In this document: piece by piece, positions 22,872 through 58,727 of the stretch
Layout of the letters: the number at the start of each line of letters is the position of its first letter
How positions within the stretch are numbered: the first letter of the stretch is position 1
Assembly (NCBI GenBank): GCA_029856235.1
Contig: JAHQWP010000193.1
Span: 9,646-73,645 of the forward strand
From: Promethearchaeia archaeon
Lineage (GTDB): Archaea; Asgardarchaeota; Lokiarchaeia; Sigyniarchaeales; SOKP01
DNA: 64,000 nt
Reading direction: 5' to 3'
Translations under genes and position numbers: made by a program
Notes under the pieces: generated by a model
Databases searched by the model: none
The model's input: only the letters and a program-made list of their open reading frames with translations
Told to the model about the DNA's origin: nothing

Positions 22872-23007
22872 ATCTAATCGTTTTGATTATAATGTGTTAA
22901 TTAAATTTTTATATAATGAGCAATATTTAACGCTATTCAGTATAATCTATAATTATGAAAAATTAATTGAATAATCTTTCTCATATCGAAAAAATAGGTG
23001 TATAATT

Positions 23008-25398: not shown

Positions 25399-25509
25399 TT
25401 TCCTTTTTTTTATTTCTTTTAGAATGAATAATTACCTTTTCTTATGTTCTTTATAATTTTTACAGATAGGCATATAAAAAACCTGACTGGTATACAATTT
25501 ATATGCTTT

Positions 25510-25534
25510 TTGCGAAGAGAATAACTCTTCGCAA
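25510..25534. terminator. Perfect 10-bp hairpin between convergent genes
   Basis: TTGCGAAGAG-aataa-CTCTTCGCAA lies between the stops of 23008..25398 (+) and 25677..26864 (-). A T-tract (TTTTTTTTATTTCTTTT) directly follows the plus-strand stop. Confidence 0.3.
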
Positions 25535-25676
25535 TACCAATCGCGGTATCTATCATTCTTTCCTGAGATTTATGGCATCGCTAAACATTAATGAATTGAG
25601 CTATTCAAAAATATATTTCTATCAAGTAAAATTACAGCCAAAAAAAGGAAAAATATATAAAAAAAAATAGAAAGTT

Positions 25677-26864: not shown

Positions 26865-26879
26865 TTTGCATTACCTCCT

Positions 26880-30183: not shown

Positions 30184-31275
30184 ATGCAAATAACAGATAT
30201 CAAAACATATGTTTTAAAAATGGATTTTAAAGTTAAAATTGGAAGTATGCCGAGACTTCAAGCTAGTGGTGTTTATACAAATCTCAAGACAGACGAAGGA
30301 ATTGATGGATGGGCCTTAACCCATTGGAATCTGAGCAACCTCGCACAAAAGCAGTTTATAGACGAAGCCTTAAGAAAGCTGGTTTTAAATAAGGATCCAT
30401 TTATGGTTGAGGAAATCTTTCACGAAGTATATCAAAACACTAATAGAATTTTGTTTGGAATACCACAAGCTACTTCTGCTATACAGATTGCGTGTTGGGA
30501 TATAATGGGAAAAGCAACTAACCAACCGATTTATAAATTACTCGGTGGTCGTAAGAGAGAGGTTAAGTGTTATGCTTCTATTCTACGCGGGTATAAACCA
30601 AAACCTGCTGTAAAAACCGTTGAGAATGCTGTGAATCCCGAATTGGGAGGGTTTAAAGCAGTGAAATTACGTATAGGAATGGGGGTAGATCAAGACGCAG
30701 CAATTTTGAAGGAAGTTAGAGATGTTTTTCCAGATATCGATATTATGGTTGACGCAAATTCTGCTTATCAATCTGTTAACGACGCTTTGAAAGTAGCAAA
30801 AATTTGTGATAAGTACGATGTTTTATGGTTAGAAGAACCTATACCGACAGATAACTTGAACGGATTAGCAAAGATAAGAGCAAATTCTCCAGTACAAATA
30901 GCTGGTGGTGAAAATGATATGGGTATTTTTCGATTTGAAGACATTCTCTCGCGAGATTGTTTTGATATAATACAACCAGACGTTACCAGATGCGGTGGAT
31001 TTTTACAATTGAAAAAGATCGATGCTATGGCAGAAGTAAAAGGAGTTCAATGTATACCCCACATTTTTGGATTTGGACATATTTTAGCGGCTAATTTGCA
31101 CTTTATCATGGCTTCACGATGTGAATGGTGTGAGTTTCCTTTTTATCCAGAGGAATTCCAATTATTTGAGGAACCAATAAGGATTAAGAATGGAAAAGTG
31201 AAAGCCTTAGAGAAACCTGGGTTAGGTGTAGAGATTGATAAAGAAATGTTTGAAAAAAATGTTTTAAAAACTTAA
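30184..31275 (+). CDS. Enolase-superfamily enzyme (mandelate racemase/muconate lactonizing enzyme family)
   Basis: FKAVKLRIG, IMVDANSAY, LWLEEP, AGGEN and IIQPD mark the metal-ligand and catalytic positions of MR/MLE enzymes. Confidence 0.85.
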   Translation: MQITDIKTYVLKMDFKVKIGSMPRLQASGVYTNLKTDEGIDGWALTHWNLSNLAQKQFIDEALRKLVLNKDPFMVEEIFHEVYQNTNRILFGIPQATSAIQIACWDIMGKATNQPIYKLLGGRKREVKCYASILRGYKPKPAVKTVENAVNPELGGFKAVKLRIGMGVDQDAAILKEVRDVFPDIDIMVDANSAYQSVNDALKVAKICDKYDVLWLEEPIPTDNLNGLAKIRANSPVQIAGGENDMGIFRFEDILSRDCFDIIQPDVTRCGGFLQLKKIDAMAEVKGVQCIPHIFGFGHILAANLHFIMASRCEWCEFPFYPEEFQLFEEPIRIKNGKVKALEKPGLGVEIDKEMFEKNVLKT

Positions 31276-33433: not shown

Positions 33434-36400
33434 ATGAAATTTGGTAGTAAGCTAGAATTGAGTTTTATCCCCTCTTCCTATTGGAATGAGCCCTTAAGTG
33501 GATTCAAATTAAGTTCCGAAGGACCAGATTTGCCTAAAGATTCTAATTTTTTTGTTTTATGGATTCCTTCAAATAACTCAGAAGACATTCTTTCGAAGCA
33601 CATAACTGAAATCTTTCCAAGGATACCTGTTAACAAGCTTATTAGCTGCAATATAAACTTGGCATTTCCTCCCTTGGAAATAGCAGATAATTCTCAAGAG
33701 AAGATTTCGTTAAATTTCTATGAAATATCATTGTGCATAGCAAAGATCATACCTATTGGTCCTGCTGTTAAGTTACTTTTTCAAATGGAAATTGTAGATA
33801 ATGTCGATCGTGGGATAAAGCATTACAGCAATTCAATTAAGACTTGGTCTTTTCTAACAAAATTAGTGTTCGAACTATTGAACAAAGGGCAGTTCATTCC
33901 TAGCTTGGAAACTAAAAACAATAAAGGGTATAATGGCAAGTGGAATTTACTACTAAAATCTCAAAACGATAAAGATCGACTTCAAACAATATTGAAAAGA
34001 GCTTCTTGGTCGGCTTTTTGTATTCCCATAAATTTCATTCAATTTAATGGGGGATACAAAACTAATGGATTATGGCACCCATCCTATTTATTTTCATTCT
34101 TTATAGATACTATTGGAGATTATCTGATACGATCAACATTAAATAAAATGAAGTTCCGTACTTTTAACGAATTTTATAGTAAAGAATTAAAAAAAGAGGA
34201 CAGTTCAGACTATAGGCCAGGTTGGGATTATAAATTTCTTAAATCCCTTATTACGAAGGATTCGAATTTTAAAATACAATCATTCCATGAAACTATTTTA
34301 CCAGCGTTGATTAAAAATTGGACTCAATCAGCGAGAGGATTTACGTTAAAGCATGGTTTTGTATTCAACTTAGAGTTAAAGTATCCAAAAACTCCAAAAA
34401 ACGATTGGCTGTTAGTTTTTTATGTTTCTTTTCAAGATGGAGCACAAAATATTCCTTTACACGAACTATGGGAAGAAAACAACCAAAAGAAACTAGAAAA
34501 GCTAAAGATCATTGATAGCAAAGGGGAATTTTTAGAGATAATTTTAAGAGCTATTGGTACAGCTTCAAAAGTTTTCCCCCCCATAAAAAGAGCTTTAGTA
34601 GAAAATCTTCAAGATGAAATTTCTCTTACTTCATCTGAAGTCATTGATTTTCTAAAATACCCTAAAGATTTATTAATACAAAGTGGATTTAACGTTATTC
34701 TCCCGGAAGTCTTCAGAAGAGATGGAAAACAGAGGTTATCAGCTAAACTCATTATTCGTTCAAACAGTAGTATTAAAACAAAAGAAGGTGTTTTCCAAAG
34801 TTTGCCTTCAATCTTCGATGTCCATTCAATGCTTGATTTCAAATGGGAAGCAACAATCGAAGGAAAAAGTATTTCGGATGAAGCATTTAAAGATTTAATC
34901 AATTTAGATGAATCTTTAATTAACATGGACGGAAAATGGATCTTAGTAGATCCACAATCAATAGCAGATTTTAAACAATCAAAAACCCCCGAGTTTGAAA
35001 ACTACATGGATGTGCTTAAAGTTGGTTTGCTCGGGAAGATACAATTACGGGAAAATGGTACTGAATACGATGTGATTATCGAAGGAGAATTCAACGATAT
35101 TATCAGTAATTTACAGTCAGTAAAATCTTTTGAAGATATTCCATGCCCATCATCATTTAACGGCACTTTAAGAGATTATCAACAAGAAGGTCTCACATGG
35201 ATGGGCAACATGACAAAGTTCAATTTTGGATTATGCTTAGCAGATGATATGGGTCTTGGTAAAACTATTCAGGTGATCGCCTTTCTATGCTATCTTAAGA
35301 AAAATTATCCTGAAAAGCCTGGAAGCGTAATCGTTGTATGCCCAACCTCAATTTTATTTAATTGGCATCGAGAAATAAAGAAGTTTGCCCCCGATTTAGA
35401 CGTATTGCTCCATTACGGACCTTCTCGGATTAAGGACGCATCAGACATACCAGAAATTATTAAACCACACAGAATTATCCTCACATCTTATGGAACGCTA
35501 AGAAACGATATTGATTTATTGGAATCCATCAATTTTAGCGGAATCATCGTTGATGAAAGCCAAAATATAAAAAATTATACTTCACAACAGTCTAAAGCTA
35601 TAAATAAGCTCAGAGGGCAATTCAAAATCTGTCTAAGCGGCACTCCAATTGAGAATCGTTTGCTCGAATTATGGTCACTTTTTAATTTCTTAAATATTGG
35701 TCTTCTAGGGAAGAGAAAGGAGTTTCATAACAGATATATCATCCCAATTGAACGCTTTCAAAATCAAGATGCCATTGAGAAATTAAGGTTAATCATTGCG
35801 CCTTTCATCTTACGGCGCGTAAAATCTGATAAGACCGTCATTAAAGATCTACCTGATAAAAACGAAATGAAAATTATCGTCGATTTAAGCGAAACGCAAG
35901 TTAAATTATACAGAGAACTCGTAGATAACACTCTGAAAGATATTGCCGATATGTCTTCAGATAAAAGAAAAAAGAGGGGAATAGTCCTAGCTCTATTAGT
36001 AAAACTAAAACAGATTTGTAATCATCCTTCTCAATACCTGAAACTTGATATGGAATCATTAGAATTAGAGAATAATTTGCAAGAATTCGTATCTCAATCA
36101 CAAAAGCTAGAACGACTGATCGAAATGACCGATGAGGTTCTACTGAACGGAGAAAAAGTTTTAATATTTACTCAATTCACGCAAATGGGAGACATTCTAA
36201 AAAGTGTCCTTGAACAGAAATACAACTTTGAGATTCTCTACTTCCATGGAGGGGTACCAGAAAATAAAAGAAGGGAAATCATTGATCAGTTTCAATCAAA
36301 CGATTTAGAAAGCCCTCCAATATTAATTTTATCGTTAAGAGCCGGTGGAACGGGGTTAAACCTTACTCAGGGAACAACAGTTATACATATAGATAGGTGG

Positions 36401-36631
36401 TGGAATCCCGCAGTAGAAGACCAAGCAACAGATAGAGCTTATCGAATTGGTCAAAAATCGATTGTAAATGTGTATAAATTTATTACAAAAGGAACAATTG
36501 AAGAAAAAATCGACAATCTTTTGGAAGAAAAGCGCGAATTGGCTGATGCGATTGTAGCTTCTACAGGAGAATCTTGGATTTCAGACTTAAATGATGATAA
36601 ATTACGGAATTTGTTAAATTTAGGTGATTGA
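33434..36631 (+). CDS. SNF2-family helicase/ATPase with a ~560-aa N-terminal extension
   Basis: The helicase motifs are LADDMGLGKT (I), IIVDESQNIKN (II), LSGTPIENRL (III), LRAGGTGLNLT (V) and DRWWNPAVEDQATDRAYRIGQ (VI). Confidence 0.9.
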   Translation: MKFGSKLELSFIPSSYWNEPLSGFKLSSEGPDLPKDSNFFVLWIPSNNSEDILSKHITEIFPRIPVNKLISCNINLAFPPLEIADNSQEKISLNFYEISLCIAKIIPIGPAVKLLFQMEIVDNVDRGIKHYSNSIKTWSFLTKLVFELLNKGQFIPSLETKNNKGYNGKWNLLLKSQNDKDRLQTILKRASWSAFCIPINFIQFNGGYKTNGLWHPSYLFSFFIDTIGDYLIRSTLNKMKFRTFNEFYSKELKKEDSSDYRPGWDYKFLKSLITKDSNFKIQSFHETILPALIKNWTQSARGFTLKHGFVFNLELKYPKTPKNDWLLVFYVSFQDGAQNIPLHELWEENNQKKLEKLKIIDSKGEFLEIILRAIGTASKVFPPIKRALVENLQDEISLTSSEVIDFLKYPKDLLIQSGFNVILPEVFRRDGKQRLSAKLIIRSNSSIKTKEGVFQSLPSIFDVHSMLDFKWEATIEGKSISDEAFKDLINLDESLINMDGKWILVDPQSIADFKQSKTPEFENYMDVLKVGLLGKIQLRENGTEYDVIIEGEFNDIISNLQSVKSFEDIPCPSSFNGTLRDYQQEGLTWMGNMTKFNFGLCLADDMGLGKTIQVIAFLCYLKKNYPEKPGSVIVVCPTSILFNWHREIKKFAPDLDVLLHYGPSRIKDASDIPEIIKPHRIILTSYGTLRNDIDLLESINFSGIIVDESQNIKNYTSQQSKAINKLRGQFKICLSGTPIENRLLELWSLFNFLNIGLLGKRKEFHNRYIIPIERFQNQDAIEKLRLIIAPFILRRVKSDKTVIKDLPDKNEMKIIVDLSETQVKLYRELVDNTLKDIADMSSDKRKKRGIVLALLVKLKQICNHPSQYLKLDMESLELENNLQEFVSQSQKLERLIEMTDEVLLNGEKVLIFTQFTQMGDILKSVLEQKYNFEILYFHGGVPENKRREIIDQFQSNDLESPPILILSLRAGGTGLNLTQGTTVIHIDRWWNPAVEDQATDRAYRIGQKSIVNVYKFITKGTIEEKIDNLLEEKRELADAIVASTGESWISDLNDDKLRNLLNLGD

Positions 36632-36635
36632 ATAG

Positions 36636-37562
36636 ATGGATGAAAGAAAAAAATATTTCATGGATAATAGGAGAAACAAGAAAAAAGATGTCCCTAAAAG
36701 AAAAACGGAATATGAAAAAGAAAGAACCCGCGAAGAAGTTGAACAAATTAAAAAAAATCTAATCAATTATGCTAAGACACCTTGGGGAAGAGATTGGATT
36801 ATCTCAAACCTAAAAATTGGGCGTCCCTTCAGAATGCAGAGAGGAATTGATTATGCTAAAGATGAAGAGCGTATTGACAATTTCTCAATAAGTACTGGCC
36901 AAATCTTCGCAACCGTACAAGGTAACGCTCCTACACCTTACCGCGTGAAAATAAATTTTGAAATTATTCCGGATGAAACATGGGAAAAAATAGTTAAAGA
37001 ATTATCTACGAGACTAGATTACATCATCGAATTATTAGAAGGCTCTCTACCCCAAGAGATTGTTACTATCTTTGAAAACAATGGATATTCCCTATTCCCA
37101 GATTCAACTCAGGGATTAGATTCAACTTGCTCTTGTCCTGATAAAGCAATTCCCTGCAAACATATTGCTGCTGTAATTTTATATCTTGCTCGCGTGCTAG
37201 ATTATAATCCATTCTTATTGTTAGAGTTGCGAGGAAAATCTAAAGAAGAAATTCTTGTGGATCTTAGTTTATCACAACCAATAGAGAGTAGAGATGAATC
37301 CGAAGAAGTTTCTCTTAAGAATAAGATTGAATTTAAATTTAATGTCCCTAAAATTTACATCGAAGATATAACCGAACTCTATTCAGGTACTGATGAATAT
37401 ACGATTGGATTTGACATAAAAAAGCCGGGAAAGATTATAGAAACTTTAGAGAACTTAGGAATTCCCCAAAATATGGAGAATAAAGCTTTTGAAATTGTAT
37501 TAAGAGCAATTTATCGTAAAATTACATCAAAAATGCATGAAATATCTTTAGAACTCAGTTAA
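36636..37562 (+). CDS. SWIM zinc-finger protein (partner of the SNF2 helicase)
   Basis: CSCPDKAIPCKHIAAV matches the SWIM CxC...CxH signature. It starts 4 nt after the SNF2 stop. Confidence 0.8.
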   Translation: MDERKKYFMDNRRNKKKDVPKRKTEYEKERTREEVEQIKKNLINYAKTPWGRDWIISNLKIGRPFRMQRGIDYAKDEERIDNFSISTGQIFATVQGNAPTPYRVKINFEIIPDETWEKIVKELSTRLDYIIELLEGSLPQEIVTIFENNGYSLFPDSTQGLDSTCSCPDKAIPCKHIAAVILYLARVLDYNPFLLLELRGKSKEEILVDLSLSQPIESRDESEEVSLKNKIEFKFNVPKIYIEDITELYSGTDEYTIGFDIKKPGKIIETLENLGIPQNMENKAFEIVLRAIYRKITSKMHEISLELS

Positions 37563-42899: not shown

Positions 42900-45539
42900 T
42901 TGTTATTTATTCATAGTAAAGTCGAAAAAATATCTTTAAATGAGAATTGGTTCCTGACAAACGAACAAAAAGCAATTGAGGTACTAGCTGAAGTACCCGG
43001 AACTGTATTTGAAACATTAATTAATAACAAAATTATTGAAGATCCTTTTTATGGACTAAGAGAACACGAGGTTTCATGGGTTTACGAGTCAGAGTGGGAA
43101 TATAAAACGATTTTTGATCTGAACCCAGCTTTTTTAAACCATAATAACATCCTACTTCGCTTCCACGGGCTGGATACCATATCAGAAATTATTCTAAACG
43201 GAGAGAAGCTAGGATTTACAAAGAATATGTTCGTCAGATACGATTTTAAAGTAAGATCAATATTAAAAAGAAATAGAAATAAGTTGATTATTAAATTTCA
43301 AAGTCCTACTTTAAAAGCACGTGAAGAGATAGAAAATAGAGGTATAAATTTAAATACGGGGGAGGATGCGATTCCAGGAGTACCATATATCCGTAAAGCT
43401 CAGTATTCTTTTGGATGGGATTGGGGTCCTAAACTACCTGACATAGGAATATGGCAACCAGTCGAACTATTAGGCTACGACGACCTTAAAATCGACTCTA
43501 CTTATGTAAACCAAAAATTACACTATAATAAAAGTGTTGATAGAATATCTAAATTAGAACAGATCACTGATCTGGGGGTTATGTCAACTGATTTATCAAT
43601 TATAGTAAATTTACAATCAGATTTATCAATCAATGAACTCCATCAATATCGCCTAAGAATTGAATTGAAAGCTCCTGATGGTAAAACTTTTACATCTGAA
43701 ACATTTATCACTAGCCTGACTCCTAAAGTGGAGTTTAATCTCGAATACCCGTATTTATGGTGGACCCATGATCTAGGTGTTCCTAATTTGTACGATCTTA
43801 CAGTTGAACTTCTTAAAAGCGGATTAATAGATTCTTTTAAGCAGAAAGTCGGGATAAGAGAGATTCGTTTAATACAGAATTCTGATGAATGGGGAGAATC
43901 ATTTTTATTTAGGTTAAACGGTATTCCTGTATTTGCGAAAGGAGCTAATTGGATTCCAATCGATAGCTTTATTCCTAGAGGGAAAAAGAAAGGGCTCTAT
44001 AAATCAAATTTATACAACGCAAAAGAAGCTAATATGAACATGATTCGCGTTTGGGGCGGTGGAATCTATGAGGATAATACTTTTTACGATTTATGCGATA
44101 AGTTAGGTATTTTAGTCTGGCAAGATTTCCCATTTGCGTGTGCTTTCTATCCATATGAGGAAGAGTATATAGAAGATATAAAGAAAGAAGCTACTCAAAA
44201 TATTAAGAGGTTGCGTAATCATTCAAGCTTAGCGTTATGGTGTGGGAATAATGAGATTGAGTGGCTGTGGAAATACCTGGTAATGAGGTCTGAAATTACT
44301 GAGAAAAACATCATCAACGAGTTTGTTATAGGATATTTAAAAATATTCGAAAATTTATTACCCAAATTACTTGAAAAATATGATCCTAATCATCAATATT
44401 GGCCTAGTTCTCCTTCTAATGGCTATGTAGGGAATACATTTGGTAAACATGACGCTAATTCACCAAATACGGGTGATTCGCACTTTTGGGATGTTTGGCA
44501 TAATAATAAACCATTTAAAACCTACCGAAAATTTAATTCGCGTTTTATGTCTGAATTTGGTTACGAATCTTTTCCTTCAATAAAAACAATCGAAGATTTT
44601 TGTCCTGTAGAGCAATTTGATTTCTTCTCGCCAATCATGGAAAATCATCAAAAAAATTTAGCCGGGAATAGAAAAATATTGAAATATATGAAAAAGCGAT
44701 TTACTATACCCCAAGAGTTTGAAAATCAAGTAGTTTTATCACAGATAACGCAAGCTGAAGCCATCGAATATGGAGTTGAACATTGGCGTCGAAATCGCAA
44801 TGATTACCATTGTATGGGCGCACTGTACTGGCAACTAAATGATTGTTGGCCAGTAGCTAGTTGGTCGTCTTTGGACTACCATAATCGCTGGAAAGCGTTA
44901 CATTACTATGCCAAAAGGTTTTACCAGCCCGTTTTTCCAAGCGTTAAAGAAGATGCTAAATTTGTAGAGTTTTGGGTATCAAATGATCTTCGTACCCCTC
45001 AAAAATTCCAGTTCGAGTGGAAACTCTATAAATCAGATGGAAAAATAGAAAATAGTGGCTCTTTTGAATCAGAAATCCTTCCATGCTCATCAAAAAAGCT
45101 TGGAATGGTCGGTGTTTCTGATCTGAATCAAAATTATAAGAATTTATCGGACTATGCTATTTTCTTTGTGTTAAAATACAGTAATCTTGAAGGTGACCAA
45201 GAAATTCATGGATTTAGGTTGTTTTCAGCTCCAAAAGAATTTCAGTTAAGCAATCCTAATATATCTTGGAAACTCAGCGAATACTATTGTGAAGATAATA
45301 ATGAAAAAAAATACGAAATCAAGATAACAGCAAATAAAATTGCTCTATATGTTCATGTAGATTCAAAAAAATTTGATTTTATTGCGTCGGATAATTATTT
45401 CTCCTTAGAACCGGGTGAGTCGAGAACTATTACTCTGAAAAATTTAAGTTTAGTATATTCATCGGAACCCGCCTATAAAACCGTTAACAAAGAAGACTTT
45501 GTTATAAGATCACTCTACGATTTATTGAAAAATTCATAA
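42900..45539 (+). CDS. GH2 beta-mannosidase
   Basis: [43 protein letters not shown] and SEFGYESFP are beta-mannosidase-type GH2 motifs. It starts at TTG and has no signal peptide. Confidence 0.85.
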
Positions 45540-45555
45540 ATTTTTTACTTTCTAA

Positions 45556-46905
45556 TTGAATATAATACTTAATTTAATTAGGAAGTCAGAGATTGATATT
45601 TTGACAAAAAAGGAAAAAATAGTAATAATTGGTGCAGGTTCCTTACAATTTGGCTTAGGGTCTGTTGGAAGCGTAATAAACAGCGAAGTGTTACAAGGAT
45701 CTGCAATAAGTTTGCACGACATCAACCAGACTAATCTGGATTTAGTTACCCTATCGTGCAAAGAAGCAATTGAGCAAAAGAATTTAGATCTTGATTTAGA
45801 ATCTACAATTGACCGGAAAAAGGCCTTAAAAAATGCTACTTTCATAATAAATTCCATAGAAGTCTCTCCAAGATTTGAATTGTGGGAAAGAGATTACGAA
45901 ATCCCTCGTAAGTATGGAAATACGCAAATTATGGGCGAGAATGGTGGTCCGGGAGGATTATTTCATTCATTACGAGTGATTCCTCCGATCCTCGAAATTT
46001 GTGATGACATCAATAAAATATGCCCTGATGCTCATGTTATTAATTATTCCAATCCTATGAGTAGAATTTGTTTAGCTGTCAAGCGAAAGTTTCCTTCGTT
46101 AAATTTTGTAGGGCTATGTCACGAATTCCCTGGATTTGTACGTCATTATTCCAAGATACTAAACACTCCACTTTCTAATCTTGAGATGAGAGCTGGAGGA
46201 TTAAATCATTTTGGAGTTCTTCTATCAATTCGATATATCGATAAGAATAAAGATGCGTATCCTGACCTTAGAAAAAACGCTCTAAAATATCTGAGTGGGG
46301 CCATTGGATACCCCTACGATGTTGATTTGATTAAATATATCCTTGAAAAGTTTGGTTACATACCTTATACACAAGATTCCCACTATGGTGAGTATATTTC
46401 TTGGGGTTGGGAAAAAGCAAACTTCGAGGGCGCAAGAGATTTTTATAACAAGTATAAGGATCTTACATTATCAACGGGAAGACGAATCCAAAAGTTAATA
46501 AAAAGAGGAAAGGGCGCAAAACTTGTAAAACCAGATTTCGAGAGGGCAATACCGATTATTGAGGGCATAAAAACTGATTCTAATCATGAGGAGGCTTCTG
46601 TTAATTTACCTAATGATGATGTTATTACTAACATTCCACGTGATTTAGTTGTGGAATGTCCCGCAATTGTTACTAAGAATGGATTAAAGGCAATAACACT
46701 AGGAGATTATCCAAAAGGATTAGCAGCATTACTACGTAATCAAGCTTCGGTTCAGGATTTAGTAGTAGAATCGATTCTTAAAAAATCAAAAGAGATTGCG
46801 TTTCAAGCTTTGCTTATGGATCCTACAATAGAAAACGCTTCCAAAGCCGAAGAAATGTTTGAAGAAATGTTAAAAGTAAATCAAGATTATATCGATTTAC
46901 AATAG
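45556..46905 (+). CDS. GH4-family NAD+/Mn2+-dependent glycosidase
   Basis: KIVIIGAGSLQFG (Rossmann fold), NYSNPMS and the GLCHE catalytic motif. The start is uncertain: the track start is TTG 45556, and TTG 45601 (MTKKEKIVIIGAGS) is an alternative. Confidence 0.8.
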   Translation: MNIILNLIRKSEIDILTKKEKIVIIGAGSLQFGLGSVGSVINSEVLQGSAISLHDINQTNLDLVTLSCKEAIEQKNLDLDLESTIDRKKALKNATFIINSIEVSPRFELWERDYEIPRKYGNTQIMGENGGPGGLFHSLRVIPPILEICDDINKICPDAHVINYSNPMSRICLAVKRKFPSLNFVGLCHEFPGFVRHYSKILNTPLSNLEMRAGGLNHFGVLLSIRYIDKNKDAYPDLRKNALKYLSGAIGYPYDVDLIKYILEKFGYIPYTQDSHYGEYISWGWEKANFEGARDFYNKYKDLTLSTGRRIQKLIKRGKGAKLVKPDFERAIPIIEGIKTDSNHEEASVNLPNDDVITNIPRDLVVECPAIVTKNGLKAITLGDYPKGLAALLRNQASVQDLVVESILKKSKEIAFQALLMDPTIENASKAEEMFEEMLKVNQDYIDLQ

Positions 46906-48876: not shown

Positions 48877-48980
48877 ACTACATCATTTTCTTATAAATCT
48901 CACTAAAATAAATTTAATATCTATAATGCCTTTTTTCAAATAAATTTGATACTAAATTTAAAATTTAATAGAACTAAATT

Positions 48981-49649
48981 ATGAAATACTTTTTAGATAG
49001 TGCAAAAATAGATGAAATTAAATATGCTTTAGATAATTGGGGAATTAACGGCGTAACTTCCAATCCGAAACATATAAAAACTTCTGGCAAATCATTTTAT
49101 AGTGTAGTAAAAGAATTTGCTGAAGAGTTTAAAGATATTGACTTTCCAATTTCGGTGGAGATTAACCCACATATAGCTAATGCTAAAGAAATGGTAGCTG
49201 CAGCTAAAGAGATCGCAAAAATATCGCCTAACTTTGTTATTAAAATCCCTTGTACAGAACAAGGATTAATTGCTACAAAGGTATTAGTAGAAGCAGGGAT
49301 AAAAGTTAATGTCACCTTAGTTTTTACAACTTCTCAAGCCTTACAGGTTGGAAGGATTGGCGCAGCATATTGTTCTCCCTTCATAGGATGGCAAGAAAGC
49401 TCAGGTGTGGATTGTGAACTCTTAGTCTCAGATATAATGCAAATTTATCGAAATTACGATTTTACTACTGAAGTGATAGTAGCTGCTTTACGAAACGCTA
49501 AGCAAATAGTTGACGCAGCACGTTTTGGTGCGTTTATTGTCACAGCAGGATTTGATGTTTATAAAAACAGTTTTGAGCATCCGTTTACTGAGAAAGGACT
49601 CAAAATATTTCAAGATGCGTGGGATGATACAGATCTAGGAACATTATAA
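48981..49649 (+). CDS. Transaldolase-family protein, short FSA/TalC type (fructose-6-phosphate aldolase-like)
   Basis: The 222-aa product has MKYFLDSAKIDEI, GVTSNP, VIKIPCT (Schiff-base Lys context) and NVTLVF. Confidence 0.85.
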   Translation: MKYFLDSAKIDEIKYALDNWGINGVTSNPKHIKTSGKSFYSVVKEFAEEFKDIDFPISVEINPHIANAKEMVAAAKEIAKISPNFVIKIPCTEQGLIATKVLVEAGIKVNVTLVFTTSQALQVGRIGAAYCSPFIGWQESSGVDCELLVSDIMQIYRNYDFTTEVIVAALRNAKQIVDAARFGAFIVTAGFDVYKNSFEHPFTEKGLKIFQDAWDDTDLGTL

Positions 49650-49673
49650 TAACAAAAAAAGAGGTTTATCAGA

Positions 49674-50990
49674 TTGAAACAAGAAATACGCGTTGGCCTT
49701 GTATGTTTAGCTCGTAAAACCTTCGATTACCAAGCAGCTAAAGAGATTTACGGCAAAATTAAAAATGATTTAAAAAAATTAGATAATGTTCATTGGGAAA
49801 TTGTAGAAGACTTGGTTATTGAAATTGACGAGGCACAAAACGCGGCTCATAGACTTTTTTGCCAAGAAATCGATGCCTTAGTATGTATTAGCGGTACCTT
49901 CGCATTAGGACATTTGATTTTGGAATTAAACAAGATAATAAATAAGCCAATTTTATTGTGGGGATTAGAAGAATTACCTTATGACGGTGGAAAAATTCGT
50001 CTAAATTCGGTATGTGGAATTAATTTGAATTCGAGTAATCTGTATAAAGCTGGTGTTAAAAATTACCAGGTTGTAATTGGCGAGAAAATCGATGAAGATT
50101 GGGTGGATGCAATTCGTATCATTAAAACTTTTTCCGCAAATCGGATAGGAATTTTAGGGTATAGAGCTAAAGGTTTTTTTAACTTGGATGTAGATGAATT
50201 AGATTTATATAAGCAGTTGGGAGTTCTCGTTGATCACTTTGAATTAGAGCAAGTTTACAACTTTGCAATCAATATTGATAAGATAAAAGATAAAATAACA
50301 CAGATCAAATCGACTTTTGATGTATCTGGTATTACGGAACAACAAGTTACCAAAGTCGCCGAATTAACCGTAAAATTTGAAGGATTCATGAAAGAGAACA
50401 AATTGAGTGCTCTAGCCATACGATGTTGGCCTGAATTTGCAGAAAATTTTGGTATTTCTCCGTGTGCGGCAATGTCGGTATTACAATCAGAAGGTAATAT
50501 CCTAACATGTGAGGGTGATTTGTTAGGAGCTTTATCGATGTTAGCCCATAAAGCTATTGGTGGTGAAACACCATTTATGGCCGATTTTTCACAAGTAGAT
50601 CTTAAAGAAAATATCGGACTATTATGGCATTGCGGTGTTGCAGCCTGTAATTTATGGGATGAGAAATGCGTCAGGTCATTAGATAGTTATTTTGCCGGAG
50701 GAAAAGGAGTAACAGCAGATTTTGTAATGAAGTCTGGAGAGCTTTCACTGCTTAGAATTGATTATACTCCTGGCGAATATAGAATCTTTTTACAAAAATC
50801 TAAAGGCATCCCAATGAATAAAGAGTTAAAAGGGACTTATGTAAAAGTGAGATTTAAGGATGATGTAAGGGATGTACTTGATAAAATAATATATAACGGG
50901 ATAGCTCATCATATATCTGTTGTTTACGGTGAATTTATAAAACCGCTGGAGATTTTTGCTAAATTAAAGGGTTGGAATGTAATTAAGTAA
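49674..50990 (+). CDS. L-fucose/L-arabinose isomerase family protein
   Basis: RVGLVCLARKTFD, LLWGLEE, NSVCGINL, AIRCWPEF and CEGDLLGALSM follow the pattern of the short FucI/AraA-like family. It starts at TTG, 24 nt after the transaldolase stop. Confidence 0.65.
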   Translation: MKQEIRVGLVCLARKTFDYQAAKEIYGKIKNDLKKLDNVHWEIVEDLVIEIDEAQNAAHRLFCQEIDALVCISGTFALGHLILELNKIINKPILLWGLEELPYDGGKIRLNSVCGINLNSSNLYKAGVKNYQVVIGEKIDEDWVDAIRIIKTFSANRIGILGYRAKGFFNLDVDELDLYKQLGVLVDHFELEQVYNFAINIDKIKDKITQIKSTFDVSGITEQQVTKVAELTVKFEGFMKENKLSALAIRCWPEFAENFGISPCAAMSVLQSEGNILTCEGDLLGALSMLAHKAIGGETPFMADFSQVDLKENIGLLWHCGVAACNLWDEKCVRSLDSYFAGGKGVTADFVMKSGELSLLRIDYTPGEYRIFLQKSKGIPMNKELKGTYVKVRFKDDVRDVLDKIIYNGIAHHISVVYGEFIKPLEIFAKLKGWNVIK

Positions 50991-51006
50991 AAATCTAAAG
51001 GTATTA

Positions 51007-52992
51007 ATGATGTTAAAACTAAAGCTTAACAAACTTGCTGATGGGTTTACAATCTATTTTAAGGATTATCCATTTTTAAAACACAATCAAAATGCTCCGT
51101 GTTTTAAAATTGGCAAAGGGAAAGCTAAATACAAACTGCATCACGGTGAGTTTAAAATTAGGGAGAAAGAAGTTACTGAAATTCCCTTGCAGAGATTTGA
51201 GATTTTAAGTGATGGACCAGATGAATTAGAATTAGAATTTAAAAATTCTGAGGAAGAAAAGCTTAGGGTTATGATTCTAATAGAAGATGATCAATTTAGG
51301 TTGAAGTTTGATTGCTCTGATCCCGATATTAATAGATTTTGGATGAAAATTCAAGCTACAAGCAATGAGGCTATATTTGGACTCGGAGAACAATTTTCTG
51401 AAATTAATTTTAGAGGTAAAGATCTTCCACTTTGGGTTGAAGAGCAAGGAGTTGGGCGAGGAGATCCTCCTATAACTGGAGATTGGTATACTACTTATCA
51501 TCCACAACCGAGTTTTGTCTCTTCTGAAAATTATTTTTGCCATTGTAATAGTACAAGTTATGCGAGATTTAATTTTACTAAAGAATCTTTCCATGAGTTG
51601 TATATTTGGAGCGTACCTGAAGAAATAACTTTCGGAAAATTTGAATCTACTCTTGAGACTGTAAGCAACCTTTCACAACTGTTAGGAATCCAACCTAAAT
51701 TACCAGATTGGGTATATGATGGAGTTTGGCTTGGAATCCAAGGTGGAAAAGATATCGTAGAGCAGAAGATTCAAACCTGTATTGAAAAGAAAGTTAAAAT
51801 TTCCGCAGTATGGTGTCAGGATTGGCAGGGAATTCACATGCAAGGTGCTCAGAAAAGATTGATTTGGAACTGGGAGTATGATTCAACACTTTATCCGGAT
51901 TTACCTGCCTACATAAAAAGTTTAAATAGTAGAGGGATAAAATATTTGGGATATAACAACTCTATGCTTGCACAGGGGGAAGAACAATATCAGTACGCGC
52001 TTGATAAAGGACTAACTATTAAAGATACAAATAGAAACCAATACAAAATAATTACAGATAGCGGAGAGAAATCTTTGCTTGATCTTAGCAACCCAGAAAC
52101 TCTACATTGGTTTAAAGAAATTGTTAAAGAAAATATGATAAAAATAGGATTGTCAGGATGGATGGCAGATTACGGAGAATATCTTCCAATCGATGCTGTT
52201 TTACATTCTGGCGAAAATCCCGAGACATTCCACAACAAGTATCCTGTCGAATTTGCTAAAGTTAATTACAAAGCTATAAAAGAAGCTGGTCGCTTGGAAG
52301 ATATTGTATTCTTTACAAGAGCAGGTTATTCGCATGTTTCAAAATACTCAACATTGGTATGGGCTGGCGACCAACTTGTAGATTGGAGTTTGGGAGATGG
52401 TCTAGGAACTGTTATACCAGCGGGCATTTCAATCGGTATATGCGGGATAGGTTATTATCATTTTGATATTGGTGGATTCCATAGCCTTGGCATTTATATT
52501 CGAACTAAGGAAATGTTCATGCGTTGGACAGAAATCGCTGTTTTCACAACGGTTATGCGTACTCACGAAAGTATTAAACCGTACGATAATTTACAATTTG
52601 ATTACGATGAGGAAACGCTTGAACATTTTGCTAAGATGGTATACATACATGTACAACTTAAACCATATTTTCAATATCTCTCAGAAGAGTATCAAAAAAC
52701 TGGGATAAGTCCTTTTAGAGGTTGTTTTTTGCATTATGAAAACGATCCTGAACTCTACGATTTAAAATACCAATACATGTTAGGACCTGATTTGGTCATC
52801 GCTCCGGTAATAGAACCGAATGAAGATACATGGAAGGTCTATTTACCCAAGGATGATTGGATTCACTTGTGGAGTAATATCGAGTACAAAGGTGGATGGA
52901 TCACCGTAGAAGCACCTATAGGTAACCCTCCCGTATTTTATAAAAAGGATTCGACATTTAAAGATTTATTCAAAAGCTTAGTTAAAATTTAA
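51007..52992 (+). CDS. yihQ: GH31 glycosidase of the YihQ (sulfoquinovosidase) type
   Basis: VWCQDWQGIHMQGAQKRLIWNWEYD (51811-51882) parallels E. coli YihQ QDW..G.R....FGKRVMWNW with the Gln and RxxW sulfonate-binding signature. The nucleophile context is GWMADYGEYLP and the acid/base context is WAGDQLVDWS. Confidence 0.8.
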   Translation: MMLKLKLNKLADGFTIYFKDYPFLKHNQNAPCFKIGKGKAKYKLHHGEFKIREKEVTEIPLQRFEILSDGPDELELEFKNSEEEKLRVMILIEDDQFRLKFDCSDPDINRFWMKIQATSNEAIFGLGEQFSEINFRGKDLPLWVEEQGVGRGDPPITGDWYTTYHPQPSFVSSENYFCHCNSTSYARFNFTKESFHELYIWSVPEEITFGKFESTLETVSNLSQLLGIQPKLPDWVYDGVWLGIQGGKDIVEQKIQTCIEKKVKISAVWCQDWQGIHMQGAQKRLIWNWEYDSTLYPDLPAYIKSLNSRGIKYLGYNNSMLAQGEEQYQYALDKGLTIKDTNRNQYKIITDSGEKSLLDLSNPETLHWFKEIVKENMIKIGLSGWMADYGEYLPIDAVLHSGENPETFHNKYPVEFAKVNYKAIKEAGRLEDIVFFTRAGYSHVSKYSTLVWAGDQLVDWSLGDGLGTVIPAGISIGICGIGYYHFDIGGFHSLGIYIRTKEMFMRWTEIAVFTTVMRTHESIKPYDNLQFDYDEETLEHFAKMVYIHVQLKPYFQYLSEEYQKTGISPFRGCFLHYENDPELYDLKYQYMLGPDLVIAPVIEPNEDTWKVYLPKDDWIHLWSNIEYKGGWITVEAPIGNPPVFYKKDSTFKDLFKSLVKI

Positions 52993-53008
52993 AAAGAGTA
53001 TTATTAAA

Positions 53009-53242
53009 ATGAAACCCCCAGTATGTTGTATATGTAATAAAAGGTTAGATTATCCTGATGAAGGAGGATTAATATATTTTAAAAAAAGAGCTTCAGACAA
53101 AAAATGGGATAAATTGATGGAAGAAAATGGAATGGTTGGACATCCTCCTTATGCAGAATGGTTTTGTGAAGACCATTATGCCAAGGCTAAAGAGTTGAAG
53201 GATTTAACCATTGATAGAGCTATGAAATTGTTAGAACCTTAA
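53009..53242 (+). CDS. Small Cys/His protein (zinc-binding-like), last gene of the operon
   Basis: The 77-aa product has CCIC...WFCEDH. It lies 16 nt after the GH31 stop. I recognise no family. Confidence 0.4.
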   Translation: MKPPVCCICNKRLDYPDEGGLIYFKKRASDKKWDKLMEENGMVGHPPYAEWFCEDHYAKAKELKDLTIDRAMKLLEP

Positions 53243-55846: not shown

Positions 55847-57145
55847 TTAATACTTTCTTGGAGGTTTTTGCCTTTCATCCTTTATTTTCCCTTTTAACAA
55901 AGGATCTTCAGTTTTTTTCATCCAATTAAATAATTTTTGTCTTAATTCGAGCAAAACATCATTATAAGCGGGATTATATGCAAGGTTGTTATATTCGAGT
56001 GGATCTTCTTTTAAATCATAAAATTCTTCTTTTTTTCTATTCATTTTTATTTTATCCTTTAGAATTTGACCAGAAAGACTCCTCTCAATAAGGATCGGCA
56101 TTTGATAGAGAGATTCTTTAGGCTCAAAATTATGAATGTATTTAAACTCTCTGGTTCTGACGCTCCTCATAGGATCATATATATCGTGATAATTTTTTTC
56201 TGTAAAAATTTCTCTCCTAAAAGGAAGATTAGTATCTTTTAGAACAGGTAGAAAGCTTTTCCCCTCTATGTTTTCTGGAATTTCTGCTCCAATAAATTCT
56301 AATAAAGTTGGTAAAAGATCAATATTACTTATCATTTGCTCAAAGACTTTTCCGCCATTAAAGAAAATGTTATTAGGACAGTTCATTATGAGAAGAGTCT
56401 TTATGCCCGGATCATATAGCGTACATTTAGCTCTTGGGAAAGGGCTACCATGATCAGTTGTGTAAATGAAAAGGGTATTCTCTCTTAAACCAGTATTGTC
56501 TAAAAATTCAAGAATTTTTCCTATAGTTTCGTCTACAGGGTTAATAATTCCATAAAATAAACCTAAATCTTCCCGGACTTTATCAGATTCAGGTAGAAAA
56601 GGAGGAACTATAACCGTTTTTGGATCCACTGGTTCACTCCATATGTGAAAAGGGCGGTGTATCTCAATTACGCCTAAATTCGCAAAAAAAGGCTTTTCAT
56701 CGTCTTGATGTGCTTCAAAGAATTTTTTATATTCATTTAACATTATTTTAGTATCGTATTTATAGTCCTTCATCCTTTTACTAACAGTATCGTATCCTAA
56801 TGTTTTGACATCAACGCTCTCGTGCTGTAAACCAAGTAAATGGGTTGTATATCCGCTTTCTTTAAGATACATAGGCATCGTTTTATTGTGAGGCGGTAAA
56901 GTCCACCCCCGATTAACTAGCCCTATTAAACCATTTTGATGAGGATATAACGATGTTTGAATACTTCCTCGACTTGGGCTACATTGAGGAGCTGTACAAA
57001 AGTAATTCGTAAATCGTATCCCATCTTTCGCTAACTTGTCCAGGTTAGGTGTATGTAATGAATTTGGCGTTTGAGGTGTATCATAACAACCTAAAAATTG
57101 CCCTTGATCATGAGTTATAAACAGTAATATGTTAGGTTTCTTCAA
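55847..57145 (-). CDS. Cys-type sulfatase (formylglycine-dependent), no signal peptide
   Basis: NILLFITHDQG, CTAPQCSPSRGS (the C-x-P-x-R FGly motif) and YTTDHG are classic sulfatase motifs. Confidence 0.85.
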   Translation of the reverse strand: MKKPNILLFITHDQGQFLGCYDTPQTPNSLHTPNLDKLAKDGIRFTNYFCTAPQCSPSRGSIQTSLYPHQNGLIGLVNRGWTLPPHNKTMPMYLKESGYTTHLLGLQHESVDVKTLGYDTVSKRMKDYKYDTKIMLNEYKKFFEAHQDDEKPFFANLGVIEIHRPFHIWSEPVDPKTVIVPPFLPESDKVREDLGLFYGIINPVDETIGKILEFLDNTGLRENTLFIYTTDHGSPFPRAKCTLYDPGIKTLLIMNCPNNIFFNGGKVFEQMISNIDLLPTLLEFIGAEIPENIEGKSFLPVLKDTNLPFRREIFTEKNYHDIYDPMRSVRTREFKYIHNFEPKESLYQMPILIERSLSGQILKDKIKMNRKKEEFYDLKEDPLEYNNLAYNPAYNDVLLELRQKLFNWMKKTEDPLLKGKIKDERQKPPRKY

Positions 57146-57284
57146 CTTATCTCATTTTATTAGAGTTGGTGGGTTAAAATTAATTTAACTATCTGGTATA
57201 AAATTAGAAACTAAAAACTATAAAAAGATGGTCAACTAATATTTAAAAATACTTACATAATTTATAAAAAAATTGGTAAGAAAA

Positions 57285-58727
57285 ATGGTACAAGACGATT
57301 TAAATATTAAACATAGTAAAAAAGGAATGGTTTCTTATGGTTTCAACTCGTTTTCACGAGAGTTTCTTAGAATTGCCTTTACAACTTTTGGTTTCTTCTT
57401 CTATGAATCTGAACTCGGATTGAATGTTTGGTTGATATTTTTTGCATATTTCATTTTTGCGATTTATAATATGTTTAACGACCCACTTGTTGGATATTTA
57501 ACGAATAAGCCCTTCAAGTTTACTAAAAAATGGGGGCGAAGATTTCCCTGGATTTTAGTTGGTGGGCTACCTTGGGGTTTTACTTACATGCTTATATTTA
57601 CACCGCCAACTTACGATGCCGTAGGAGGTGCGTGGATACTGTTCGCTTGGTTACTTTTCACTACATGTTTGTTTGATACGTTTCACTCAATCTTTTTTGT
57701 TAACTTTCAGTCGTTATTCGTTGATAAATATCGATCAGTTCAGGAACGTAGGACTGCTAGTGGTATCTATATTATGATAGGTGTTGTAGGTGTTGCGTTG
57801 GGTTCTATCCTGCCTCCATTAATTTTTAACACCACGGAAGGCGGGGTCACAGATTTCCCTTCTTTTGCTTTTCAAGGATTAATAGTTGCTATCGTTACTT
57901 TCATTGGTTTCTTATTAGCTATACCAGGATCACGAGAAGATCAGGTTACTATCGACCTTTATTTAGCTTCTCAAACAGAAGAACGAGAAAAAACTTCTTT
58001 TTTCAAAAGCCTTTGGGGAGCTTTAAAGCAGATGCCATTCCTCGCATTCATGGTATTTTATTTCCTTTATCAGTCTCTAGTAGAAACAATGCAAGCTTCC
58101 GTTCAATACACAGTTAAATACTCCTTGCTAATGGACGAATCAGCCTCTACTTTAATTTTTGCGGCATTTCTTGTAGGTGTGTTAATTTCTAGCCCAATTT
58201 GGACTATATATGCAAGAAGAGTCAAAAACAACAAAAAAGTGATGTTGATATCTGGATTCCTTTTGGCTGCTTTTACAATTCCAATCACATTTTATAATCC
58301 TTATTTAATTCCATTGCCTGTTTTTGGGGTTTACTTATTAATAGTCTTTGAAATGTTATTATGGGGATTAGCGATGGGAGGTTTTTGGACGATGATATTC
58401 CCAGTATCGGCAGATGTAATTGATAACTCCGTCGTAGCAACAGGAAAACGCGAAGAGGGGGTTTATACAGGATTTCAACAGTTTTTTGCTAGAATCGGAA
58501 TTATCGTTCAAGCTCTCACATTTGCAATTGTGCATGAACTAACTGGATTCGACGAAAATTTAGGTTTAGCTCAACCAGAATCAGCAGTATGGGGCATTCA
58601 TCTTCATCAAGCTCTTATTCCTGCGATATTTGTTATAATTGGTGCTCTTGTATTTTGGAAGTGGTACAAATTAACTCCGGATATTGTGGCTGCTAATCAG
58701 GAGAAAATCAAAGAAATGGGTATATAG
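57285..58727 (+). CDS. GPH-family (glycoside-pentoside-hexuronide):cation symporter
   Basis: It has about 12 TM helices and the signature NMFNDPLVGYLTNK (the D-P-x-x-G loop after TM2), as in MelB/YihO/YihP-type carriers. I prefer ATG 57285 over TTG 57273. Confidence 0.7.
   Translation: MVQDDLNIKHSKKGMVSYGFNSFSREFLRIAFTTFGFFFYESELGLNVWLIFFAYFIFAIYNMFNDPLVGYLTNKPFKFTKKWGRRFPWILVGGLPWGFTYMLIFTPPTYDAVGGAWILFAWLLFTTCLFDTFHSIFFVNFQSLFVDKYRSVQERRTASGIYIMIGVVGVALGSILPPLIFNTTEGGVTDFPSFAFQGLIVAIVTFIGFLLAIPGSREDQVTIDLYLASQTEEREKTSFFKSLWGALKQMPFLAFMVFYFLYQSLVETMQASVQYTVKYSLLMDESASTLIFAAFLVGVLISSPIWTIYARRVKNNKKVMLISGFLLAAFTIPITFYNPYLIPLPVFGVYLLIVFEMLLWGLAMGGFWTMIFPVSADVIDNSVVATGKREEGVYTGFQQFFARIGIIVQALTFAIVHELTGFDENLGLAQPESAVWGIHLHQALIPAIFVIIGALVFWKWYKLTPDIVAANQEKIKEMGI

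Follow-up and report, generated by a model that had tools for sequence, protein, structure and literature searches.

We analyzed a 64,000-nucleotide stretch of DNA from an Asgard archaeon (Promethearchaeota/Lokiarchaeia), below called the window, and focused on four closely spaced plus-strand genes at positions 48981-53242, three of which are predicted to encode the core of the sulfo-transaldolase pathway of sulfoquinovose catabolism (sulfo-TAL, also named sulfofructose transaldolase pathway or sulfo-SFT). A transaldolase gene (sftT, open reading frame [ORF] 1) is followed by an sftI-like gene for an aldose-ketose isomerase (ORF 2), an sftG/yihQ-type gene for a glycosidase of glycoside hydrolase family 31 (GH31; ORF 3), and a short gene for a cysteine-rich protein, orf77 (ORF 4; Table 1). 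The spacers between the ORF calls are 24, 16, and 16 nt, in agreement with a preliminary description of the locus, made from the sequence alone, that had outlined this array and read it as possible sulfo-transaldolase-style sulfoquinovose catabolism. Short purine-rich motifs resembling Shine–Dalgarno sequences precede the starts of the downstream ORFs, and the region 5′ of sftT is presumed to hold the promoter. The GC content of the operon, ~0.34–0.35, equals the window level, and scans of the 64 kb with Rfam and for tRNAs gave no matches.

Enzymes encoded by the operon

Among all PDB sequences, the transaldolase was closest to the sulfofructose transaldolase of Bacillus megaterium (BmSF-TAL; 8bc2-4), with 64% identity, 303 bits, and an E value of 1e-89, whereas the next match and best canonical enzyme, the transaldolase of Thermotoga maritima, reached 154 bits. 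A neighbor-joining tree separated the SftT clade from the canonical transaldolases and fructose-6-phosphate aldolases (TAL/FSA) with 100% bootstrap support. We aligned 76 sft-linked orthologs with Escherichia coli FsaA and the transaldolases of T. maritima and Thermoplasma acidophilum and derived a signature from the comparison: S7, K88, C91, W137, E139, A169, and R171 were common to all 76 orthologs, the window protein included, at columns where canonical enzymes carry T, K, M/V, R, D, S, and R/K. W137 takes the place of the phosphate-binding arginine of the SPFxGR motif (SPFVGR) and A169 that of the serine of ASIR, and both are absent from the three canonical enzymes. The invariant K88 (FVIKIPCTE) corresponds to K89 of BmSF-TAL, the Schiff-base lysine of that enzyme (PMC12890257). 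Against the equivalog TIGR00875 (fsa_talC), the window protein scored 186 bits and the authentic Priestia megaterium sulfofructose transaldolase 201 bits, both below the cutoff of 246 bits. By these comparisons, ORF 1 is an ortholog of BmSF-TAL rather than a canonical TAL/FSA and a predicted transaldolase for sulfofructose (6-deoxy-6-sulfofructose; SftT/SqvA); the earlier assignment to a short FSA/TalC-type transaldolase holds and can be narrowed to this clade. Public records label the window protein and its Asgard orthologs plain "transaldolase." Where metabolic reconstructions of Asgard archaea credit SftT-clade proteins with the pentose-phosphate transaldolase reaction, they may be in error for this clade, and if the sulfo-TAL core is true, an Asgard "transaldolase" should not count as evidence of the nonoxidative pentose-phosphate pathway.

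For the glycosidase, phmmer searches of PDB returned an unnamed GH31 enzyme (8r56; E = 2e-195), E. coli YihQ (1e-187), and Eubacterium rectale SftG (6pnr; 1e-177); with the Agrobacterium tumefaciens sulfoquinovosidase (AtSQase), these matches span 2e-195 to 1e-155, and every other GH31 was at 1e-40 or weaker. ORF 3 scored 803 bits against PRK10426, the NCBIfam equivalog of YihQ, above the 553-bit cutoff, and a tree rooted on E. coli YicI placed it inside the clade formed by YihQ and all sft-linked GH31s, as its proposed YihQ-type affiliation predicted. The residues named in the preliminary description as the sulfoquinovosidase signature were recovered in a computed alignment with YihQ: the glutamine in QDW (51817-51825) and the arginine and tryptophan in KRLIWNW (51853-51873) align with Q288, R301, and W304 (Q271, R284, and W287 in ORF 3). 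The motifs GWMADYGEYLP (52156-52188) and WAGDQLVDWS (52360-52389) likewise supply the catalytic aspartates, the nucleophile D388 for YihQ D405 and the acid/base D455 for D472, and Q262 and H537 are kept as Q245 and H520. We regard ORF 3 as a predicted sulfoquinovosidase of the YihQ clade, with a motif that is incomplete at one position treated below.

The sole NCBIfam match of the isomerase was sulfoquinovose isomerase SftI (NF048012; E = 6e-70, residues 9-429), with a score of 236 bits compared with 829.5 for the SftI ortholog of P. megaterium and 215 for an enzyme of Caloramator that, like ORF 2, belongs to a divergent subtype here called type B. Identity to the P. megaterium protein, whose locus has the gene order of the published cluster, is 27.6% (E = 4.5e-59), and the FucI-family SftI of Bacillus aryabhattai has been characterized in recombinant form as a sulfoquinovose isomerase (PMC7491151). 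Since a sequence search of PDB gave no match to ORF 2, we used an AlphaFold (AF2) model (pLDDT 80.4, pTM 0.86) and Foldseek, which retrieved L-arabinose isomerases (TM 0.80–0.82) and L-fucose/D-arabinose isomerases (~0.75); the fold of the model is AraA/FucI. The earlier proposal that the FucI/AraA-family protein performs the isomerization gains from the characterized bacterial SftI of this family, the sole NCBIfam match, and the predicted fold.

Bacterial type-B relatives, 51–61% identical to ORF 2, were found in Caloramator, several metagenome-assembled genomes (MAGs) of Clostridia/Bacillota, and a Planctomycetota MAG. Their genes lie directly 3′ of sftT in clusters without type-A SftI (about 16 bacterial loci), where they stand in for it. 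In 19 Asgard loci, likewise, a type-B gene adjoins sftT or lies close to it, and another locus (L007) contains the isomerase and GH31 genes without an adjacent sftT. Across 60 sftT-linked isomerases of types A and B, 40 positions were conserved at 97% or more, among them E280, D282, D304, H319, and H413. ORF 2 is thus clearly a homolog of SftI by sequence, with the same genomic role and a place outside the narrow SftI equivalog, and a candidate for the isomerase that converts sulfoquinovose to sulfofructose.

Occurrence in Asgard archaea

When we scanned GTDB with one genome for each species, SftT orthologs turned up in at least 25 genomes of Asgard species; Candidatus (Ca.) Sigynarchaeum and a Promethearchaeum species are among them, as is the closed Ca. 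Lokiarchaeum ossiferum chromosome. The window transaldolase falls in the same 90% cluster as a protein of "Promethearchaeota archaeon." For the isomerase (at least 71% identity) as for the GH31, all named proteins among the best 120 homologs bore Asgard names, covering Lokiarchaeota, Promethearchaeota, Hermodarchaeota, Thorarchaeota, Helarchaeota, Hodarchaeota, and Heimdallarchaeota. The same gene order occurs on independent contigs from several samples, and the genes flanking the operon have Asgard homologs. On the closed Ca. L. ossiferum chromosome, sftT stands beside the ESCRT genes for Vps4, ESCRT-II, and EAP30/Vps36, which rules out a binning artifact; this chromosome and the Asgard names of the homologs uphold the archaeal host assumed at the outset.

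Ca. L. ossiferum is in culture and carries sftT, an sftR-like gene, and sftI. At its locus (L029; CP104013.1, 1772181-1792858), sftT and a YihU-family gene lie beside the ESCRT genes and are followed by genes for an aminotransferase, an AEC transporter, and the isomerase. No GH31 gene was found there within 10 kb, and free sulfoquinovose rather than its glycosides may therefore be the substrate of this organism.

In the neighbor-joining tree of SftT, 24 of 25 Asgard sequences formed one clade with weak support (49%), and the GH31 tree contained an Asgard clade with Leptospirales as neighbors. This pattern is what one would expect if the genes had been acquired long ago and then inherited vertically, and it is compatible with transfer in either direction.

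We counted neighboring genes in 26 Asgard loci and found sftT in 25, the type-B isomerase in 20, GH31 in 14, MFS_2/GPH transporters in 13 (22 genes), and GH2 and sulfatase genes in 7 each. A gene for a YihU-family beta-hydroxyacid dehydrogenase directly follows sftT in 5 of the 26, Ca. L. ossiferum and Ca. Sigynarchaeum included, and AEC transporter genes (PF03547) are likewise present in 5. In three loci, a Fer4 protein and an aldehyde:ferredoxin oxidoreductase are encoded within or near the cluster; in one of these, from a Hermodarchaeota MAG (L012, 10769-13079), genes for a 4Fe-4S protein and a tungsten-type aldehyde:ferredoxin oxidoreductase (PF02730 + PF01314) sit between sftT and the isomerase gene. 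This arrangement suggests a ferredoxin-dependent oxidation of sulfolactaldehyde to sulfolactate, a step of which we found no mention in the sulfoglycolysis literature examined. DUF4867/SftX, the SftD-type aldehyde dehydrogenase, TauE, and the GntR regulator of the Bacillus cluster were found in none of the 26 loci, and homologs of YihS, YihT, YihV, and YihR of the Embden–Meyerhof–Parnas type of sulfoglycolysis (sulfo-EMP) were absent from all loci.

Besides L012, such a pair of 4Fe-4S and aldehyde:ferredoxin oxidoreductase genes lies at L021 12402-14724, L024 18589-20666, and around 14206 in the bacterial locus L065. Just upstream of sftT in six to seven Asgard loci (L012, L013, L016, L020, L021, and L024; e.g., L013 7667-9292, minus strand), we observed a conserved gene pair for a NagB/6-phosphogluconolactonase-like protein (282 aa) and an Amidohydro_2 protein (258 aa), which is not found in the window.

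Neighboring genes in the window

The preliminary description had placed a YihO/YihP-type symporter of the glycoside–pentoside–hexuronide (GPH) family downstream of the operon. A GPH/MFS_2 transporter gene is indeed present, and the likeness to YihO/YihP exists at the family level only, as the product is 21% identical to E. coli YihO (E = 2.5e-11) and 21% identical to P. megaterium SftA. Orthologs with 44–45% identity occupy the same relative position, a few kb downstream of sftG, in two other Asgard loci (L006 and L015), and we infer that the symporter is a candidate importer of sulfoquinovose or its glycosides. Recurrent neighbors also include a sulfatase gene, with homologs within 10 kb of sftT in seven Asgard loci, and the GH2 and GH4 genes upstream (Table 1). 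The GH4 gene (45556-46905) was considered as an alternative NAD-dependent sulfoquinovosidase and rejected, as both Pfam and NCBIfam describe an ordinary GH4; the sulfoquinovosidase family GH188 is different from GH4.

The fourth gene of the operon, orf77, had no Pfam or NCBIfam match. Its homologs form 104 clusters with 56–89% identity, the named ones all being Asgard, and judged by these sequences it is a real, strongly conserved, and Asgard-restricted gene. It lies 16 nt after the GH31 gene in both the window and a Hodarchaeota locus (L090) and directly after it in the locus L011, and is possibly cotranscribed with the operon. It also occurs beside AlaX with no GH31 gene nearby (L092) and 4.6 kb from the GH31 gene (L010), and is not a known gene of the sulfo-TAL pathway.

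The window contains a sugar-acid-dehydratase-like gene of the enolase superfamily (30184-31275), whose orthologs, 70–75% identical, are found near the cluster of other Asgard archaea and lie ~9 kb upstream of sftT in L012, L013, and L016. In the Hodarchaeota locus L090 (3607-8074), such a dehydratase-like gene is followed by genes for an F420-type luciferase-like (LLM) oxidoreductase, a GH31 with an RWF triad (see below), and orf77, with no sftT or sftI nearby. Speculatively, this type of cluster might represent a second, Entner–Doudoroff-like route for sulfosugars.

Elsewhere, positions 22000-28000 are GC-rich (0.42–0.44 vs. ~0.33 in the rest of the window) and encode an oxidoreductase of the old yellow enzyme type, a 796-aa PKD/tannase-like ORF, a thiolase, and an HMG-CoA-synthase-like/DUF35 fusion. 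An SNF2 helicase gene (1065 aa) followed by one for a SWIM zinc-finger protein (33434-37562) and a 471-aa ORF with an HNH-endonuclease domain (6255-7670) bear no relation to the operon.

Table 1. Features of the operon and its surroundings (window positions)
Feature	Position	Strand	Details
sftT, transaldolase (ORF 1)	48981-49649	+	222 aa; Pfam TAL_FSA
sftI-like aldose-ketose isomerase, type B (ORF 2)	49674-50990	+	438 aa, TTG start; Pfam Fucose_iso_C, subthreshold only
sftG/yihQ-type GH31, sulfoquinovosidase-like glycosidase (ORF 3)	51007-52992	+	661 aa; three Pfam GH31 domains
orf77 (ORF 4), Cys-rich, Asgard-specific	53009-53242	+	77 aa; no Pfam/NCBIfam match
AT-rich 104-nt intergenic region, presumed promoter region	48877..48980	+	5′ of sftT, between sftT and a divergent M28 peptidase gene; sequence inspection
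GPH/MFS_2 symporter	57273-58727	+	Pfam MFS_2, E = 6e-50; 4 kb 3′ of the operon
Sulfatase, recurrent cluster neighbor	55847..57145	-	Pfam Sulfatase, E = 2e-35; no established link to the cluster
GH2 (beta-mannosidase-like) and GH4 genes, upstream	42900..46905	+	Pfam; GH2 recurs in 7 Asgard loci, GH4 in 5

Pathway assignment, alternatives, and known systems

We put the probability that 48981-53242 is the core operon of a sulfo-TAL pathway in an Asgard archaeon at roughly 75%. The assignment is based on the orthology or homology of the three enzymes, their retained catalytic and specificity residues, synteny, and archaeal origin, and it sustains the sulfo-transaldolase-style catabolism first proposed; what the enzymes act on, which transporter serves them, and what becomes of sulfolactaldehyde are inferred. 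Under this assignment, glycosides of sulfoquinovose, such as sulfoquinovosyl glycerol from phototroph sulfolipid, would be taken up, with the GPH symporter as candidate importer. The GH31, acting as a retaining enzyme through D388 and D455, would bind the sulfonate with R284 and W287 and free sulfoquinovose, and the AraA/FucI-fold isomerase would convert this to sulfofructose. The transaldolase would then form a Schiff base at K88, release sulfolactaldehyde, and hand the C3 unit on to glyceraldehyde-3-phosphate, so that glycolysis is supplied with fructose-6-phosphate (sedoheptulose-7-phosphate being the alternative product). Finally, an enzyme encoded outside the window would reduce or oxidize sulfolactaldehyde; related Asgard clusters offer as models a YihU-family reductase forming dihydroxypropanesulfonate (DHPS) and an aldehyde:ferredoxin oxidoreductase forming sulfolactate.

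Several observations weigh against the assignment. The sulfoquinovosidase motif has been defined as Q/E-RWY (PMC12780224; bioRxiv 10.64898/2026.02.11.705467), and its tyrosine, Y508 in YihQ, aligns with F491 in ORF 3 (DIGGF, 52465-52479); ORF 3 thus lacks one of the three residues that recognize the sulfonate. Among Asgard GH31s with a link to sftT or sftI (14 proteins), none had the full RWY triad; the variants were RWF (7), QWY (5), and QWF (2). ORF 2, at 236 bits, fails the 700-bit equivalog cutoff for SftI that the P. megaterium ortholog passes, and we know of no assay for the type-B subtype. The symporter has only its 21% identity to YihO and SftA. Searches of the 64-kb window with tblastn (queries: an Asgard SftR-like protein, E. 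coli YihU, P. megaterium SftD, SftE, and SftX, an Asgard aldehyde:ferredoxin oxidoreductase, and an AEC transporter) and with Pfam on the remaining ORFs gave no sulfolactaldehyde reductase or dehydrogenase, aldehyde:ferredoxin oxidoreductase, or TauE/AEC exporter, as the preliminary description had also concluded for the dehydrogenase or reductase and the sulfonate exporter; SftX/DUF4867 was not found in the window either. Furthermore, the window sequence is of metagenomic origin.

The alternative that survives best holds that the three enzymes descend from those of the sulfo-TAL pathway and now act on another 6-modified or anionic alpha-glucoside, e.g., a different sulfosugar, a 6-deoxy sugar, or a carboxylated sugar, the sulfonate triad being altered because the substrate has changed. 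We consider this unlikely, although it accounts for the phenylalanine at the Y508 column and for the variability of the triad among 119 close Asgard-related homologs in the YihQ clade (RWF 47, QWY 36, QWF 17, RWY 13, and NWF 3). The recurrent sulfatase, GH2, and GH4 neighbors are compatible with it, as is the Hodarchaeota cluster in which an RWF-type GH31 accompanies dehydratase-like and F420-type oxidoreductase genes away from sftT and sftI. Yet all SftT-type residues are kept in the transaldolase, as in the enzyme solved with sulfofructose (PMC12890257). R284 and W287, which make the direct sulfonate contacts, are also retained, whereas Y508 reportedly contacts the sulfonate via water only. 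QWY-type GH31s are moreover present in a few otherwise typical bacterial sft clusters, RWY being found in Bacillus-type and most other bacterial GH31s. Because non-RWY triads recur in the 14 linked Asgard GH31s and the 119 homologs, we take the phenylalanine to be a lineage feature and not a sequencing error, and treat it as a caveat to the sulfoquinovosidase prediction and not a refutation. One MAG (L091) has two tandem GH31 paralogs with the triads QWY and LYF. The phenylalanine and glutamine variants of the triad offer natural variants for probing sulfosugar recognition.

It is improbable that ordinary genes for neutral sugars, encoding an alpha-glucosidase, a sugar isomerase, and a pentose-phosphate transaldolase or fructose-6-phosphate aldolase, have come to lie together by chance. 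Public annotation reads alpha-glucosidase, fucose isomerase, and transaldolase, and the transaldolase does match fsa_talC, but with a score below the cutoff, as for the authentic sulfofructose transaldolase, and with the phosphate-binding arginine and the serine of TAL/FSA replaced by tryptophan and alanine. The GH31 is ~150 orders of magnitude nearer to sulfoquinovosidases than to any other GH31, and synteny of the three genes extends over the sft clusters of Asgard archaea and bacteria. Misassembly or misbinning of bacterial DNA into an archaeal MAG is barely credible: the pathway is otherwise bacterial and one SftT labelled "uncultured archaeon" (L034) groups with Spirochaetia, but the recurrence of the gene order on independent contigs and in at least 25 Asgard species genomes, the ESCRT neighbors in the closed chromosome, the matching GC content, the Asgard homologs of flanking genes, and, with its weak support, the common clade of 24 of 25 Asgard SftT sequences all speak against it.

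The sulfo-TAL assignment would extend sulfoglycolysis to a second domain. According to a 2026 review, no sulfoquinovose pathway has been characterized in archaea or eukaryotes (PMC12890257), in line with the earlier statement that sulfoglycolysis was described only in bacteria, and the original survey of the sulfo-TAL pathway listed bacterial phyla only (PMC7491151). Genes for the unrelated GH188 sulfoquinovosidase have been reported in "a small number of archaea" (PMC10755693). Full-text literature searches gave no report of sulfoquinovose catabolism in Asgard or other archaea, only glycan-biosynthesis contexts, and journals outside their coverage may hold one. Some Asgard GH31 entries at NCBI and JGI are already automatically named "Sulfoquinovosidase"; the gene is therefore labelled in databases, and the pathway is not described. 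We read the operon as a new member, from archaea, of the sulfo-TAL pathway, variant in some of its features. We see about even odds that sulfoglycolysis is widespread and vertically maintained in Asgard archaea (Loki-, Hermod-, Sigyn-, Hod-, Hel-, Thor-, and Heimdall-type). Features peculiar to such archaeal pathways may include sulfoquinovosidases that function without the canonical RWY triad, an operon-embedded tungsten-type aldehyde oxidoreductase for ferredoxin-linked oxidation of sulfolactaldehyde, and possibly a further route in which an F420-type oxidoreductase works together with an enzyme resembling sugar-acid dehydratases.

Sulfoquinovose is the abundant sulfur sugar of plant and algal membranes, with roughly 10 billion tonnes produced per year. 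If sulfoglycolysis is indeed widespread in Asgard archaea, the closest relatives of eukaryotes among prokaryotes would be growing on sulfoquinovose from phototroph detritus, a substrate so far unrecognized for them. A conserved sulfo-TAL core would tie sediment Asgard archaea to organosulfonate cycling, with cross-feeding of DHPS or sulfolactate to sulfite reducers, and would point to a defined sugar substrate that might aid the cultivation of these very slow-growing archaea.

Compared with known systems, ORF 1 shares with canonical class-3 transaldolases and fructose-6-phosphate aldolases (T. maritima, T. acidophilum, and E. coli FsaA) the fold, the length, the Schiff-base lysine, and the catalytic Asp6 and Glu60, and differs in having Arg→Trp, Ser→Ala, Thr7→Ser, and Met/Val91→Cys. 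The GH31 is 43% identical to E. coli YihQ of the sulfo-EMP pathway over the full length and keeps, besides the catalytic aspartates, Q262, Q288, R301, W304, and H537, whereas Y508 is replaced and the downstream route is based on a transaldolase and not on YihS, YihV, and YihT. The Bacillus-type sulfo-TAL clusters of B. aryabhattai SOS1, Priestia (Bacillus) megaterium, and E. rectale have the order sftA-T-X-G-I-regulator-D/R-E (PMC7491151, PMC11968277). For the window, these three core activities are likewise predicted from a single operon, with the 64% identical transaldolase, an isomerase homologous to the FucI-family SftI, and a GH31 44–45% identical to P. megaterium SftG. The window differs in its archaeal host, the order T-I-G, the divergent isomerase (27.6%), and the phenylalanine in place of the motif tyrosine; SftX/DUF4867, the GntR regulator, the NAD-dependent sulfolactaldehyde dehydrogenase, and the TauE exporter of this cluster type are those lacking throughout the 26 Asgard loci, the function of SftX being unknown even in bacteria (PMC11968277). 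Bacterial type-B clusters (Caloramator, Clostridia MAGs, and a Planctomycetota MAG) have the order sftT-sftR-sftI(B)-sftX-sftG. They contain a YihU-family reductase and DUF4867, both missing from the window, and their GH31s mostly have RWY (QWY in a Clostridium sp. MAG) in contrast to RWF in the window. They are nevertheless its closest nonarchaeal relatives, with isomerases 55–61% and transaldolases 64–69% identical and with the isomerase gene following sftT as it does here.

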